Shown here: in pieces, positions 29,302 through 35,500 of the stretch
Layout: the number at the start of each line of letters is the position of its first letter
Numbering within the stretch: the stretch's first letter is position 1
Assembly (NCBI GenBank): GCA_965214775.1
Contig: OZ243974.1
Location: forward strand, 1,952,001-2,016,000
Source of the DNA: Nitrosopumilus sp.
Lineage (GTDB): Archaea; Thermoproteota; Nitrososphaeria; Nitrososphaerales; Nitrosopumilaceae
DNA length: 64,000 bases
Direction: 5' to 3'
Notes under the pieces: model-generated
The model's database searches: none
What the model was told of the DNA's origin: nothing
The model's input: only the letters and a program-made list of their open reading frames with translations
Translations under genes and position numbers: made by a program

Positions 29302-30456
29302 AGAGTTGATTCGAAATTAGCAAGTTTTGATCAAATGGGCACATAATGTACACCAACCCGATCCAAATGCAGGTAAAATGTACATAATTCATGAAGTTAT
29401 TTGATAAATTGTCAAAAAACCCCCGGACATTCAGGATGTTTGCCGGCATGACTGCCCCCGAATTTGATTTGTTGTATGCAAAGGTGGCAAAAAAACACCC
29501 AAAGATGGACAAAAAGAGGCTGCTTTCTGCCAAAAAAGACCGCAAGCGTGACATCGGTGCAGGACGTCCGACTGCCCTGAACCTAAAGGAGAGTCTTCTG
29601 CTGTCCCTGTTCTACTACAGGACGTACGTCACGCAGGACGTGGCATCTGCCATGTTCGGCATTGGACAGGCATCAGTCTCGCGCACAATTGACAGGATTG
29701 CGTCGGTTCTCAAAAAGTACATTCGATCCCCGAAAAGATCTATTGGGGCACCAAGAGAATATCCTCAGTAGAGGAGCTAATGGACGTATTACCGAAACTT
29801 GTCTGCCTGACAGACGCCTCAGAGCAAAAGATATGCAGGCCCAAGAGAAAGGACATGGAGAAATCGCACTATTCAGGCAAGGCAGGCACGCACACAGTCA
29901 AGATCCAGTACACCACCAACATCCACGGACTCATAGTGCACAAGACGCCCCACTCTCCGGGACGCGTAAACGACATCACGATGTACCAGATGAGGCATCC
30001 CACGTTCCGGTACGACCAAAGAAAGGAGAAAGAGAAAGAGAAAAAGTGCCCCGGCGGCGGGGATGGTGATGCGCCACAACAACAACCGCAGAGCATAAAG
30101 CTGCGGCACTACATGGATCGCGGATACCAGGGAGCACAGTTAGTGGATGCAGGCACGGACGTCATACTCCCTATCAAGAAAAAACCGGGCTGTAAGCTCA
30201 CCGATGCGGAAAAAGAGTACAACATCACGCACTCAAAGATACGCGTGTACGTGGAGAACGTCATACGCAGGGTCAAAACATACAGGATCATGGGCGACCG
30301 GTACCGAAACCCACTCAAAAAGTACGACCTTGCCAACAGTATCGTGTGCGGACTGGTCAACGATAGGGCGTTGGCCAGAATCGCTGCTGCGGCCTGAGTG
30401 GCGGCAGCAGGACAACTGCGGACGGGGCGCTCGATTTCTAATTTCGGATCACCTCT
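29302..30456 (+). mobile_element. IS5-family (ISL2-like) element with transposase split over two frames (29391-29771, 29780-30397)
   Basis: 19-bp imperfect TIRs AGAGTTGATTCGAAATTAG / CTAATTTCGGATCACCTCT; HTH plus DDE motifs (DASE, YSGK, DRGYQG, RVYVEN). Confidence 0.9.
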
Positions 30457-30889
30457 CTGAGAAGATCTGCGAGAATCTGCGCGTCGACCTTGTCTGTCTT
30501 TTTCTTTGATGTCGCGATGGCCCTGGTCTCAAAGGGGTTTGAGAGGATCACGTCCCTTTTGAGGGTGTCTGAGATGAACCTGAACAGCCCGTACCATACG
30601 GAGGAGGACTCCATGACGCACTTTGCGTTCTCCGGAATCCCTGCAAATATCTCTCTTATCTCGTCGTCATTGTTGCTGACTCTTGTGTTGCTGAGCACCT
30701 TGCCGCCCTTGTCCATCACCGCGACTTGGATGAACTCCTTGTGCACGTCCAGGCCGACATACTGCTGCTACTTCTGCTTCTGCTGTTGTATGGTCTTTGA
30801 TTTCACACGCATCCTCTTTTTTGCGGTAATCTGTTTGTTTGCGTTGCCGTTTATTTTGGCACCATCTGAATTTTGTTTTTGAGACACAT
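30457..30889 (-). pseudogene. IS110 transposase N-terminal fragment
   Basis: YVGLDVHK..CVMESS..KTDKVDA DEDD motifs; in-frame TAG at 30768-30770; truncated by the IS5 end. Confidence 0.85.
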
Positions 30890-30929
30890 ATGAACACGGG
30901 TTAACACCCGGGCCCGTAGTAGTGTCGGT

Positions 30930-31047
30930 GTGGATCAACCGCTGTATAACCATGCGCCTTGCGCGCTGACATATGAATGCGGTAATTCTGAGCTGCAGTG
31001 TTCGTGCACCACGGCGTGCTGATAGATGTGTGCAGCCTCTGATCCAC
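30930..31047 (+). ncRNA. Predicted IS110 bridge RNA (target-binding and donor-binding loops)
   Basis: Outer stem GTGGATCA/TGATCCAC encloses two stem-internal loop-hairpin units whose loop sequences match the element's flanks and ends. Confidence 0.8.
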
Positions 31048-31070
31048 CAAAAAAAGGAAAATGAGAAAAG

Positions 31071-32204
31071 ATGCAATACAGCATAGGAATAGACATTGGA
31101 AAGAGAAAATGCGTAGCGTGCATTATGGACGACAACAAGAGGATCCTAGAAGAGACGGCATACGAGAACACCTACAAGGAGGCAGACTTGTTTGCCAAGA
31201 AGGCAAAGCTCAATTACGGTGGGAAGAACTGCCAGGCCGTCTGCGAGTCCACGGGCAACATGTGGCTCAAGACCTACGAGGCATTCGAGTCTGCAGGAAT
31301 ACCCATCAAGCTTGCCAACACCCACAGGATGCGGATAATCTCTGACATGGACGTAAAGACTGATCCTATCGACGCAAGAAAGCTTGCAAACGCCCTGAGG
31401 GCTGGAATGGTTCCCGAGTGTTACGTGGCACCGCCAGAACTCAGGAGCGTCAGGGAGCTGATGCGCTGCAGGATCCGTCTTGTGCAGGACAGGACGGCCG
31501 TGGTCAACCAGATCCACAGCCTCCTGGACAGGCATGACTGGAAGATCAACTCGTCGCACATGTACTCCAACAAGGGACTCAAGCAGCTGTTCGCCCTGAA
31601 TCTTGGCGATCCAAACGATGATGTGGTTCTCGGCGTGTATGCCAGAAGGGTCAGGCATCTTGCAGAGGAGATTGCAAGCATCGAGACAAGGATAGCGGCG
31701 CAGGCCGGCGCCAGCGAGTATGCGAGGATCCTGATGAGCATTCCGGGAATTGACTCGTTTACGGCCATGCTGCCGGTATCTGAGATCGGAGATATTGCCA
31801 GATTCAAGACCCCGAACAAACTTGTTGCGTGGTTTGGCATGTGTCCTACAGTCCACCAGTCCGGCGACAGGGAGGAGTACCACGGCAAAATGAGAAAGAC
31901 ATCCAACCGCAGGTGCAACTGGGCAATACTCCAGGCTGCGCGGACGGCTGCCATATACGATGAGAGAATGGGAAGGATCCATGCAAGATCCAAGAAGAGG
32001 AACAGTGCAAGGCCCATGGTGGCCAGGACACACGTGGCAGCCAAGATGGTCAGGATCATCTGGTCCATGCTTATGACAAAGACGCCATACTCCGGACACG
32101 ATCCCAAGACATACAAACTCAAGCTGGCCAGGGCAGAGGCCGCTGCTGCTGCTGCTGCTACTGCTACTGCAGCACCCAAGGTCAGGGAGAAAACAACCAA
32201 GTAA
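31071..32204 (+). CDS. IS110 recombinase/transposase
   Basis: GIDIGK, CESTG, KTDPIDA (DEDD RuvC), SIPGI, EIGDIARF, HQSG catalytic Ser. Confidence 0.95.
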   Translation: MQYSIGIDIGKRKCVACIMDDNKRILEETAYENTYKEADLFAKKAKLNYGGKNCQAVCESTGNMWLKTYEAFESAGIPIKLANTHRMRIISDMDVKTDPIDARKLANALRAGMVPECYVAPPELRSVRELMRCRIRLVQDRTAVVNQIHSLLDRHDWKINSSHMYSNKGLKQLFALNLGDPNDDVVLGVYARRVRHLAEEIASIETRIAAQAGASEYARILMSIPGIDSFTAMLPVSEIGDIARFKTPNKLVAWFGMCPTVHQSGDREEYHGKMRKTSNRRCNWAILQAARTAAIYDERMGRIHARSKKRNSARPMVARTHVAAKMVRIIWSMLMTKTPYSGHDPKTYKLKLARAEAAAAAAATATAAPKVREKTTK

Positions 32205-32515
32205 CGCGCACTCGCATGCAGGGAAAGGATCCCCCTGTACCCAGCGTAAGCTATAAAGCGGCCCATATTAAACTAGGCGTGGATTAGAGAGACATAGTCC
32301 GCCACCGCTAAAGGGCCCGGGTGTTTTAACATAGATGGTTACGTGCGGTGTCCACCAGCTCCCTAAATTAACTCCAGAAACCCCTGATTTAACACCCTGC
32401 TGAAAACCCCCGAAGATTTACCAGAGTATAAATCTAAATTATCCGATCTACCGACATGTCCCACGAAGAATCATCTACCGTAAACGTCCCAGTTCCTACA
32501 GTGAGCAATCCAGGA

Positions 32516-35500
32516 CTATTCCACGGAGATCCTGATCTTCTGTCCGTCAATGTCGCTGTCCTGGTATTGCTTGCAGGTCTGCTCAAAGCTGATTTTTTTG
32601 ACTCTGACCAAGAACGCCAGGTCCCGGGACTTTTCCCGAATCATCCCAAGGGATTCCCCGTCCAGGCCCAGGATTGACGCGACATTCAGGACGTCAGTCG
32701 GGTTGTATCCTCTCTCTTTTCTTAGCGCCTGCAGCCTTCTTGCGACATCCTTTACCAGTCCCTTTGCCACCATCTCCCTGTTTCTTGCAGTCGGGATAAA
32801 GACGGTATAACTGTCCCTGTGGGACACTGCATAGCCTTCTTGGGCATCAAGACCGGCTACAAAGTCCCCCGAATCAAGCGAAATCTTTTTGCCGTCCACA
32901 TAAAAGTCGTATTTTGAGCTTCCTTGCAGCAAGGAGTCCACGATCTCCTCATGGTCGGTTTCCACAAACTTTGCGGCAAGCTGTCCCATGTGCCGCTTTG
33001 CCTTTGGCCCGATCTTCTTCCTGTCTAGCTCCAGTACAGATCTTACCGGCAGTCCCAGCCTTTTGAACTCCAGGATTTGCCCCAGTCCCGGATCCTTTTG
33101 CGTCGTCTCAAAGACGCGGATCCTCTCGACGTTGAGCTGGGATTGCAGCAGCTCTGAGAGCGGTTCGAGCTTTTGCTTTTGCCCCTTTCTCACGCAGATC
33201 AAGGCCTCGTTTAGCGGCCATCTTCGCTTTAGCCTTCCCTTCATTCGGGCAGCCGAGGAGACGGATACTATGTCATTCATGATGTCAAACGACTCCTCGA
33301 CCTCCTCGTCGACCAGTTCCCGGTCGTAGGCAGGCCAGCTGCCAAGCAGTATGCTGCTCTTTGGTCCTTCAAAGACTGCCTGGTAGAGGTACTCGCTTGT
33401 AAACGGGCAGAACGGATGAATCAGGACGTCCAGCGTCCTGAGGACGCTGCTCAAGACGGCATAGATCGCAAGCCTCCTGTCCTTTTTTCCGTCATCCTCG
33501 TCCCAGAGTTCCCCCTTGGTAATCGGGACGTAAACCTGGCTCAGACTGTTTATGATATAGTCCTCAAGGGCCTTTGCGGCCTCGTGGAACTTGCAGGACT
33601 GGTTTCTGTCCGTGACTCTGCGGATCAGCCCCTGGAGCTTGGACAGCAGCCAGACATCCGGCGGCGAGAGCAGGTTGTTCATCCTTGCCCATTTGATCGT
33701 CTTCCTTGATGCGTCAAAACCGTCGTACCGGCTGTTTTGCCCAAAGTAGAGATGCAGGTTAAACAGCGTGCTGACTACCTTGTACGGCCTTGACATCAGC
33801 TCGTCAGTGCTGAAGCTGAGCGGCTCGATGGGACTTGCCTTCCACACAAAGTAGAATCTGACCAGGTCTGCAGGGTATCTTTCCAGCAGCTCTGCTCCTT
33901 CCAGCACGTTTCCCTTGCTCTTGCTCATCTTCCTGCCCTTTTCGTCCAGGACGTGTCCCTGGAACAGGAATGACCTGTATGGCGGAGTCGGGCCGTCACT
34001 TAGGATCACGTTTTCAACGAGCAGCGTGTATGCCCATCCCCTGGTCTGATCGATTCCCTCAGTCAGAAACGGTGCGGGAATCTCGTCACGATACTCCCTG
34101 TCACTTAGCGACGAGAACGGCGCCGAGCCGCTGTTGTGCCAGGTATCCAAAACGTACTCTTCCCTCTTTGTGTCCGTGCCGTTGCATTTCTTGCATCTTA
34201 CCGTGATGTTGTCAATCCACGGCCTGTGCAGCTCAAAGTCATGGCCGTCAGGCAGGTTCTCAGCCGCATCGATGATCTCCTGCCTTGAGAACAGCCAGTT
34301 TCTCTCCCCGCACCCCTTGCATGTCCATACGGGAAGCGGGCACCCCCAGATCCTCTCCCTTGATATGCACCACGGATGCCTCTCCCTGACTATTCCAAGG
34401 AACCTGTTTTTTGGCTGCTCAAAAAAGTATTCCACGCTTTTGGCCGCGTCGACTGCCTTGTCATCCAGCCTGTCCAGCTTGTAAAACCAGCCCTTTCTTG
34501 CAAGCCATACGATCGGATGGCCGGACCTCCAACACAGCGGATACTTGTGCCTGATCGTGCCAATCCTGACCAGGGCGTTTTTTTCCTCCAGGTCCTGGAT
34601 GATGACCCTGTCTGCGTCCCTTACAAACATGCCCTGGTACCTCTCCCCTGCCTGCGGTGTGAATCTCACCTGATCATCGATCGGGCAGAAGATCTTGACG
34701 CCTCTCTTGTTTGCGATCCTGATGTCCTCCTCGCCGTTTGCAGGAGAGAGATGGACCAGTCCGCTGCCCGTGCTTGCATCGACAAACGGCTCTGAGACTG
34801 CGACGTGGAAGTTGTCTGCCCTTGCGCATTCGGCCAAGGCGGGAATCTCGTCAAGCAGCGGGTGCACGTATTTTTTTCCCTCAAGCTCGGATCCCTTGAC
34901 GGTCTTGAGGACGTCCCATCTCTCGATTTTTACCTCTGCCATGAAATCCTCCAGCCTGGTTTTGCCCAGAACCCATGTCTCTGTCCCCACTTTGACGTAG
35001 GCATAGTCCTCCTCGGGCTGCAGTCCCACCATTGCGTCAGTCACCAGCGTAAATGGCATCGTGGTCCATACAATCAGGTACGCATCCTCATCGGCCAGCC
35101 TTGCCTTGTAGAATAGTGACGGGTCCCTGACTTCCTCGTACCCCTGGTTGACTTCGGCATGGCTGAGGGAGGTCTGGCAGCTAGGACAGTACGCGACGAC
35201 TGTAAAGTCTTCCTCCAAGATCCCGCTCTCATGCGCCTTTTTGAGGACTTGCCATTCCCGCTCAATGAACTCGTCTCTAAACGTCCAGTATGCCTTGTCG
35301 TGGTTAAGCGACATTCCCAGCTTCTCATCGACGTCAACCCAGTCCTTGTTGTATTTCTCGACGACCTTTTTGCATTCGGAGACTATTCTCTTGATTCCAA
35401 ACTGCCTGACTGCCTCGGTCTTGCCGCCGGTCACCCCCAGCTCCTTTTCAGCCTGCAGTTCCACAGGGAGTCCCTGGGCGTCCCATCCGCCGTTAAACTC

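Follow-up and report, generated by a model that had tools for sequence, protein, structure and literature searches.

A probably RNA-guided insertion sequence of the IS110 superfamily in Nitrosopumilus, with a predicted bridge RNA upstream of its recombinase gene

Introduction

Recombinases guided by bridge RNAs or seek RNAs (seekRNAs) form a class of systems for programmable DNA rearrangement that was discovered recently; those of its members that have been studied are, to our knowledge, bacterial. This work concerns an insertion sequence (IS) from an archaeon of the ammonia-oxidising type, in a 64-kb window (64,000 nucleotides, nt) from Nitrosopumilus sp. (contig OZ243974.1, positions 1,952,001 to 2,016,000 of the forward strand), and the whole window is part of a complete 2.83-Mb genome. 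The element occupies window positions 30890-32337. It very probably belongs to the IS110 superfamily as an RNA-guided insertion sequence with an intact structure; its ends and guide polarity would place it in the IS1111 type. The assignment is based on its anatomy, its catalytic residues, the covariation of its RNA stems and the covariation between guides and flanks, all of which were observed in this analysis.

Two described systems are close to this element. According to excerpts of Durrant 2024 (PMC11208160), the left side is read in IS621 through the bottom strand, to which the 5' strand of each loop pairs, and the right side through the top strand, to which the 3' strand pairs. Parts of Hiraizumi 2024 (PMC11208158) describe a handshake guide, which follows the right target guide on its 3' side and, once the strands have been exchanged, pairs with the donor, and a complex in which the two loops come from two different RNA molecules. 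For the IS1111 group, passages of Siddiquee et al. 2024 (PMC11187229) describe seekRNAs in which the top-strand complement lies 5' of the bottom-strand match. The same passages give long sub-terminal repeats (~7-17 bp) and asymmetric extensions, 7 bp long at the left and 3 bp at the right, as hallmarks of the group, and place the RNA downstream of the recombinase gene in nearly all members, with ISMtsp17 as a rare exception. Archaeal IS110 recombinases are already known, and 662 of them are counted in excerpts of Vaysset et al. 2024.

Results

Anatomy of the element

The genome contains a second full-length copy of the element, which is called copy B here, the copy in the window being copy A. 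When the element with its flanks was used as the query in a BLAST search, copy B aligned with window positions 30891 to 32338. About 26 genomic copies of a neighbouring repeat, ISx, all end at window position 30892. The boundaries of the element are independent of the guide matches, because they were fixed by these two alignments. The junctions of copy A read ACAT/ATG/AACAC on the left (30886-97) and ATAG/ATG/GTTA on the right (32331-41). The features are as follows.

30886..30892, + strand: left junction, consisting of the left target ACATA (30886-90) and the left TG core (30891-92); identical to the target-loop 3' strand at 30969-75
30893..30899, + strand: left terminal extension; AACAC (30893-97) is predicted to be read by the donor-loop 5' strand, where GUGUU pairs with AACAC
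30900..30915, + strand: left sub-terminal inverted repeat; reverse complement of 32313-30 except for a 2-nt insertion or deletion, with the same arrangement in homologues
30930..31047, + strand: predicted bridge RNA gene, 118 nt; covariance model R1 matches 30925-31052 at 113.2 bits
30930-37 (GTGGATCA) and 31040-47 (TGATCCAC), + strand: outer stem, which encloses both units
30938-83, + strand: predicted target-binding unit (unit 1), ACCGC/GCGGT around GCGC-CTT-GCGC
30947..30953, + strand: target loop 5' strand TAACCAT, which can pair with the top strand ATG-GTTA
30969..30978, + strand: target loop 3' strand ACATA+TG (30969-75), then AAT; the AA equals the first two left-end bases (handshake-like)
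30992-31036, + strand: predicted donor-binding unit (unit 2), GCTGCA/TGCAGC around GCAC-CACGGC-GTGC
30998..31005, + strand: donor loop 5' strand GTGTTCGT; GTGTTC can pair with G+AACAC, and the last 2-3 nt are no conserved guide
31022..31028, + strand: donor loop 3' strand ATAGATG, with the same sequence as the right end ATAGA followed by the TG core
31071..32204, + strand: recombinase gene, 377 amino acids, identified with Pfam, NCBIfam and an IS621 alignment
32313..32330, + strand: right sub-terminal inverted repeat, found by inspection of the sequence
32331..32341, + strand: right junction, consisting of the right end ATAGA (32331-35), the TG core (32336-37) and the right target GTTA (32338-41)
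30438..30892, - strand: truncated copy of a second IS110-family element (ISx), with Pfam DEDD_Tnp_IS110 on an open reading frame (ORF) of 102 amino acids; ~26 genomic copies end here

The bridge RNA gene lies 24-141 nt upstream of the start codon of the recombinase, and only 133 nt follow the stop codon, most of which are occupied by the right repeat. By our reading the repeats are followed outwards by terminal extensions, one of 7 bp (TG+AACAC) on the left and one of 3 bp (AGA) on the right, and the same layout is present in homologues. All coordinates and strings that the initial annotation had given for the outer stem, the units, the loop strands, the flanks and the sub-terminal repeats were located in the sequence, and the combination of sub-terminal inverted repeats with an upstream RNA, which it had pointed out as unusual, is real.

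The 377-residue protein matches Pfam DEDD_Tnp_IS110 (4.6e-25) and Transposase_20 (3e-21). It scores 228.8 bits against NCBIfam NF033542, 'IS110 family RNA-guided transposase', for which the cut-off is 140. Residues D8, E59, D98, D101 and S264 align with the catalytic D/E/D/D and Ser of IS621 (chain 8wt6) and are invariant across five homologues, so the DEDD and Ser motifs are intact as had been proposed. In pairwise comparison, the similarity to IS621 is remote (phmmer, E = 5.8e-7), and the identity to IS4321 is 23.5% over residues 96-340 (tblastn, E = 7e-8). A run of GCT/ACT triplets near the end of the gene (window 32140-32177) encodes a C-terminal poly-Ala/Thr tail, which differs between copies A and B.

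Stem covariation in the predicted bridge RNA

The fold was tested on 26 homologous upstream regions. The structure tested was a manual one of five specified helices, because plain RNAalifold, applied to the 26 sequences, left out the basal stem of unit 1 and gave an alternative of 3 bp. For the 27 pairs in the five helices, 83.6% of the cells were paired, against 30-45% when the partners were slid. Compensatory cells numbered 107, compared with 9-49 when slid, and none of 500 shuffles equalled the observed values. Double changes were found in 15 of the 27 pairs; in the outer stem alone they were found in 7 of the 8 pairs, and the closing outer stem that had been predicted from a single copy is therefore real.

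Construction of a covariance model from homologous upstream regions had been proposed as a check, and the resulting model (R1) gave 63 matches among 98 loci, of which the 26 training sequences fit by construction. The same fold, with compensatory stem changes, was found in about 50 homologous loci from Nitrosopumilaceae, Bathyarchaeia and other archaea. Copy B folds into this structure without constraint, with a minimum free energy (MFE) of -42.0 kcal/mol. These results indicate that the bridge RNA fold is well above chance at the family level. A scan of window 30000-33000 against Rfam returned no family at E <= 1.

One homologue (L026) carries a purine-rich insertion of ~18 nt, a G run followed by GAGGAGGAGGA, between the target and donor units. 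Its left junction fits its guide poorly, and the copy is probably decayed.

Guide strands compared with targets and element ends

Protein searches yielded the homologous loci: relatives contributed 20, named genome records 51 and metagenomes 35. The four loop strands were cut from the model alignment, and each was compared with its own locus and with other loci or classes. The target 3' 7-mer was identical to its own left junction in 29 of 48 loci and matched 6 of 7 positions in another 13, while guides of other loci gave 13 exact matches in 2020 comparisons. A 9-mer version of this test gave a weak contrast (own mean 6.9 versus 5.6); the 7-mer test was preferred because the two outermost positions do not belong to the guide. 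For the target 5' strand (7 nt after the core), the donor loop was used to fix the right end, and the strand matched the right flank at 6 or more of 7 positions in 19 of 35 loci versus 2 of 1100 comparisons with other loci (mean 4.97 versus 1.94).

The donor strands gave a similar picture. At right ends anchored by the repeat, the donor 3' 7-mer was found in 20 of 28 loci and in 0 of 112 comparisons with other classes; the 8 misses are mostly spurious seeds, and L044 is one base off. When the first 5 nt of the donor 5' strand were set against the 5 nt that begin the left end, at least 4 of 5 pairs formed in 17 of 22 classes, compared with 88 of 426 cross pairs. This complementarity is maintained through two-sided changes, namely GUGUU/AACAC, AAAG/CTTT, AAGG/CCTT, GUCC/GGAC, CUUU/AAAG, GUGA/TCAC, GUAU/ATAC and ACG/CGT. 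The central claim of the initial annotation, that all four loop strands match the junctions of copy A, is thus confirmed and backed by covariation in the family. The donor 5' guide had been given a length of 8 nt. Its first 4-5 nt do pair with the left end (6 nt in copy A), but its last three bases are ACU, CCU, CGU or AGU and show no consistent pairing with the core.

The base in front of TG follows the target and the target 3' strand at the left junction, and follows the donor at the right junction. At this first position of the core as initially proposed, the left and right junctions differ in 19 of 20 loci, including copy B (CTG versus ATG). For this reason the common crossover core is best read as two nucleotides, TG, with AG in its place in one lineage. 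The target of copy A by chance carries an A in front of TG, so that ATG is seen at both junctions, and the 3-nt ATG core that had been deduced is an accident of this copy.

In 7 of 10 classes, the left end starts with the same 2-3 bases that follow the core in the target 3' strand, and these bases covary (A/A, C/C and G/G). The handshake-like AA noticed in copy A is therefore real. The invariant U that ends the target 5' strand pairs with the donor A or G, not with a target base, and may do the handshake job for the other strand.

In copy A, the next four positions of the target 5' strand (30943-30946) were also compared with 32342-32345, which gave one A.C mismatch and three G.U/U.G wobbles and may be chance.

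Two copies with different targets

Copy B is full-length and 91% identical to copy A, and a third copy, C, is a 430-nt remnant. The donor loops and ends of copies A and B are identical. Their target loops differ: copy B has CTTCCCAT / ACTTCTG where copy A has TAACCAT / ACATATG. The flanks of copy B, ...ACTT/CTG and ATG/GGAAGAC..., are those that its own loop specifies. The comparison of other copies suggested at the outset has thus given the same ends at a different site, which matches the target loop of that copy. Within the RNA, 8 of 118 positions differ between A and B; 4 of these fall within the 14 target-guide positions and 4 in the other 104 (Fisher p = 0.007), and a fifth difference falls at a position that is guide in B. 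The concentration of differences in the guides, together with their match to the new site, implies transposition after retargeting, and the pair can be regarded as a natural retargeting experiment.

The landing sites were then traced in the genome. ISx ends with ...GAGACACATATG, which together with the conserved flank GTTAC forms the target of copy A. In 22 of the ~26 ISx copies the left end of ISx abuts GTTAC, after which the sequence is unique. Since the ISx copies stop at 30892 and GTTAC follows, the insertion point of copy A falls precisely where the ISx terminus ...ACATATG meets GTTAC. Exact ACATATGGTTA sites that are unoccupied number 21 in the genome, and every one is an ISx junction. 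The uninterrupted site of copy B, ACTTCTGGGAAG, occurs 88 times in the genome, each time at the end of a repeat (several classes) and followed by unique sequence. Because A is at an ISx junction and B is at repeat termini, both copies appear to have landed in the termini of other mobile elements.

The 16-nt string ACTTCTGGGAAGACTG has 88 sites in the window's own genome (contig G000:C1, for example at 188886, 849942 and 2118616) and ends at least five repeat classes. Copies B and C are inserted at this string, and so is L037 in another genome. Beside one B-type site an ORF has HTH_23 in the N-terminal 60 amino acids that were scanned, which is insufficient to name the repeat family.

R1 matches eight places in the window's own genome, and the target 3' strand fits the left junction in 7 of these 8. 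Five bridge-RNA copies at G000:C1 586928, 1310609, 1348693, 558072 and 2341018 (L109-L114) belong to a second subfamily with the left end AACACATGATAAAAAC and the donor strand ATGGATG. None of them precedes an intact recombinase gene, and the target 3' strand still fits the left junction in 4 of the 5. Three solo right-end fragments of 37-114 nt were also observed, at G000:C1 254719-254832, 1631189-1631294 and 1351328-1351364. Each ends ATAGATG/GTTAC. They are cut on the left at different internal points, and two are preceded by ...AACTA, possibly the end of another insertion sequence.

Distribution of the family

The named records with homologues are from Nitrosopumilus, from metagenome-assembled genomes (MAGs) of Nitrosopumilaceae and Cenarchaeum, from Bathyarchaeia, from one Promethearchaeati and from one contig binned as Poribacteria. 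Among the 98 loci, no locus with a bacterial title matched the covariance model except the Poribacteria-binned contig. In a sample of 151 genomes of the class, 21 had a match, as did 12 of 48 genera; the 21 include the genome of the window (G000) and one unpublished genome, G164. Some relatives are rich in copies, with 20 RNA hits in G152, 16 in G112 and 11 in G179. The Poribacteria MAG contig (L042, 51 kb) has a recombinase of 52% identity with a full bridge-RNA match, which points either to mis-binning or to transfer between co-resident symbionts.

In L002/L027 (~1170-1320) a homologue is inserted in a CRISPR array (repeat GTTTGAATTGAGCTATGATAGGATTGAAAG), 12 nt into a spacer, and its right flank mismatches the guide.

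Neighbouring insertion sequences

Three insertion sequences are nested in this region of the window. The recombinase of ISx is 28-30% identical to that of copy A. In the non-coding region downstream of its gene, paired GAGGG.GATCCTCG hairpins flank a TTTTGTAAC stretch, which is the complement of GTTAC. ISx thus looks like a canonical IS1111-type element with its own predicted seekRNA. The ISx copy in the window is truncated at 30438. It is adjoined by an insertion sequence at 29391-30397, which has HTH_Tnp_4 and DDE_Tnp_4 in two frames (29391-29771 and 29780-30397).

Discussion

We propose that the non-coding left end would encode a + strand bridge (seek) RNA, whose closing stem would hold two units, each with a stem, an internal loop and a hairpin. 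Unit 1 would read the target. Its 5' strand would pair with the top strand over the core and the right flank, and its 3' strand would pair with the bottom strand over the left flank and the core and continue into the 2-3 bases at the start of the left end. The tail of unit 1 matches the left junction product and would in this respect be like the handshake guide of IS621. Unit 2 would read the circularised donor; its 5' strand would pair with ~5 nt of the left end, and its 3' strand with the core and 5 nt of the right end. Once bound to this RNA, the DEDD/Ser recombinase would exchange strands at the shared TG, and the circle would be inserted between left-flank-TG and TG-right-flank. Copy A would have been retargeted to the junction of another insertion sequence (ACATA-TG-GTTA), and copy B would keep a guide for a 16-nt terminus common to 88 other repeats (ACTTC-TG-GGAAGAC). 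The parts of this mechanism that we infer are transcription of the RNA, the chemistry of strand exchange, the strand that is cut first and the circular intermediate.

Several observations, here and in the next two paragraphs, weigh against this mechanism. The guide-match counts overstate independence because the loci are related; they comprise 31 distinct target 3' 7-mers, 22 donor classes and 5 right-end classes, and with only 5 right-end classes the donor covariation rests on few independent events. The right flanks of L037, L002, L049 and L022 mismatch their own guides, perhaps because these copies have decayed or been rearranged. A handshake between the donor loop and the right flank, with both bases matching in 4 of 29 loci, is not convincing. 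Folded without constraint, copy A has its MFE (-45.8 kcal/mol, with z = -2.47 for the 128-nt stretch) in another fold, while the initially annotated fold has -33.8 kcal/mol and becomes optimal for copy A (-37.4 kcal/mol) only when the four guide strands are held unpaired. That fold is thus borne out by the MFE of copy B and by the family covariation, but not by the unconstrained folding of copy A.

It could also be supposed that the RNA guides only the choice of target, that the recombinase reads the ends through the sub-terminal repeats, and that the similarity in unit 2 is inherited and non-functional. The repeats of 16-18 bp could well be protein binding sites. Besides the small number of right-end classes, donor 5' pairing covers only ~5 nt and reaches just 2-3 of 5 in 5 of the 22 classes, and the genome itself offers no donor test, since the donor loops and ends of A and B are identical. 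This explanation is nevertheless very unlikely. The complementarity survives two-sided changes in many classes and is not produced by co-inheritance alone, and the right-end 7-mer is confined to its own class; excerpts of Durrant et al. 2024 (PMC11208160) describe donor-binding nucleotides for IS1111 bridge RNAs, too. A further possibility is that the element is a dead relic, in which the guide matches record a past insertion and the copy is no longer mobile. The genome has only two full-length copies, the six other R1 matches being without an intact gene, and 20 other exact A-type sites are unoccupied. The right-flank guide of copy A reaches only 4 nt past the core, a shorter reach than most relatives have. 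Four runs of DNA contigs contained neither a circle junction nor an empty-site form, their loose ends being other copies of the flanking repeats, and the circle-junction motif is absent from the genome; the absence of circles and empty sites is weak evidence because contigs drop rare forms. We consider a relic unlikely, since the ORF is open with all catalytic residues present, the RNA stems are intact, and the differences between A and B are concentrated in the guides and match the new site.

A structure that works on the - strand or as single-stranded DNA, rather than as + strand RNA, would have the same helices, which are equally possible on either strand, and the - strand MFE of copy A does have the two-hairpin layout. 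A G:T wobble in the donor pairing had been taken as support for + strand RNA, but this argument is weak, as the wobble cells in the helices are without strand bias (31 G.U versus 28 A.C). The probability of this alternative is nevertheless negligible in our view. Only on the + strand does each loop strand have the core at its 3' end and does the handshake follow the 3' guide, which is the IS621 arrangement. The order of target unit and then donor unit, directly upstream of the gene and in the same orientation, fits known bridge RNAs, and single mismatches of the target 3' strand are U.G-compatible for + strand RNA in 5 cases versus 1 for the - strand. A + strand RNA is thus favoured by the IS621-like loop geometry, by the order and position of the units before the gene, and by the mismatch counts. 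At ~27-29 nt ahead of the outer stem the left repeat has an A/T-rich part, whose role as an archaeal TATA element is a conjecture.

The mechanism is already known, and the work reveals no new one; the unusual part is an IS1111-type system with an upstream RNA closed by an outer stem. A bolder view, which we hold to be doubtful although it deserves mention, is that the archaeal elements form a third architecture of bridge recombination, combining IS1111 polarity and ends with an upstream RNA whose closing stem forms one three-way junction. One RNA could then present both loops in one synaptic complex, and guides on both target strands would extend into the donor. If true, the elements would provide a compact, naturally retargetable archaeal recombinase-RNA pair. 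They would also be a living archaeal example for the descent of Nop5/C/D-box guides from IS110, as proposed in parts of Vaysset et al. 2024.

Among the papers listed, a literature search found none that joins bridge RNAs with these archaea, although surveys that include archaeal genomes (Durrant 2024; 10.64898/2026.10.21.760802), consulted in excerpt form, may hold the family in their supplements. The present work decodes an archaeal clade from sequence alone, with predictions for the target-reading and donor-reading nucleotides, the 2-nt TG core and the handshake extension. It adds an upstream-RNA, closed-stem variant to the IS1111 type, and suggests that these elements use the termini of other insertion sequences as landing sites. 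The results also supply concrete constructs for testing programmability in or from archaea.

Comparison with known systems

Several features of the RNA are common to the archaeal element and IS621. Both encode the RNA in the left end, ahead of the recombinase gene; the target loop precedes the donor loop, and each loop is internal, between a basal stem and a hairpin. The pairings include a 2-nt core, the catalytic residues align, and a handshake extension after the 3' target guide matches the donor. When the DNA is flipped, the archaeal + strand loops are isomorphic to those of IS621, with the core at the 3' end of each loop strand. In contrast, the guide polarity relative to the gene is reversed in the archaeal element. 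The initial annotation was right that the order is opposite to that of IS621, but this is not new, as it is the seekRNA polarity already published for IS1111 in the available passages of Siddiquee et al. 2024 (PMC11187229). The core is TG here and CT in IS621, the sub-terminal repeats are 16-18 bp long, compared with 2-3 bp in IS621 and with either none or 2-3 bp in the IS110 group, and the closing outer stem is a feature of the archaeal element.

With the IS1111 group (ISEc11, ISPa11, ISKpn4), the archaeal element has in common a DEDD/Ser recombinase, long sub-terminal repeats, 7/3-bp extensions and a top-strand complement located 5' of the bottom-strand match. Both target repeated sequences, for example the termini of other mobile elements. 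The archaeal element differs in that its RNA lies upstream of the gene, its two simple internal loops are inside one closing stem, and the hosts here are archaea. IS4321 and IS5075 of the IS1111 group reportedly target the terminal repeats of Tn21-family transposons, a finding ascribed to Partridge and Hall in 2003. They resemble the archaeal element in site-specific insertion in mobile-element termini and in their sub-terminal repeats, and differ from it as bacterial plasmid elements with a recombinase of 23.5% identity. The RNA of IS4321 and IS5075 has the same position as in IS1111. Taken together, with the recombinase compared pairwise only, the archaeal family appears IS1111-like in its ends and guide polarity and IS110-like in the position of its RNA and its simple internal loops, to which the closing stem is added.

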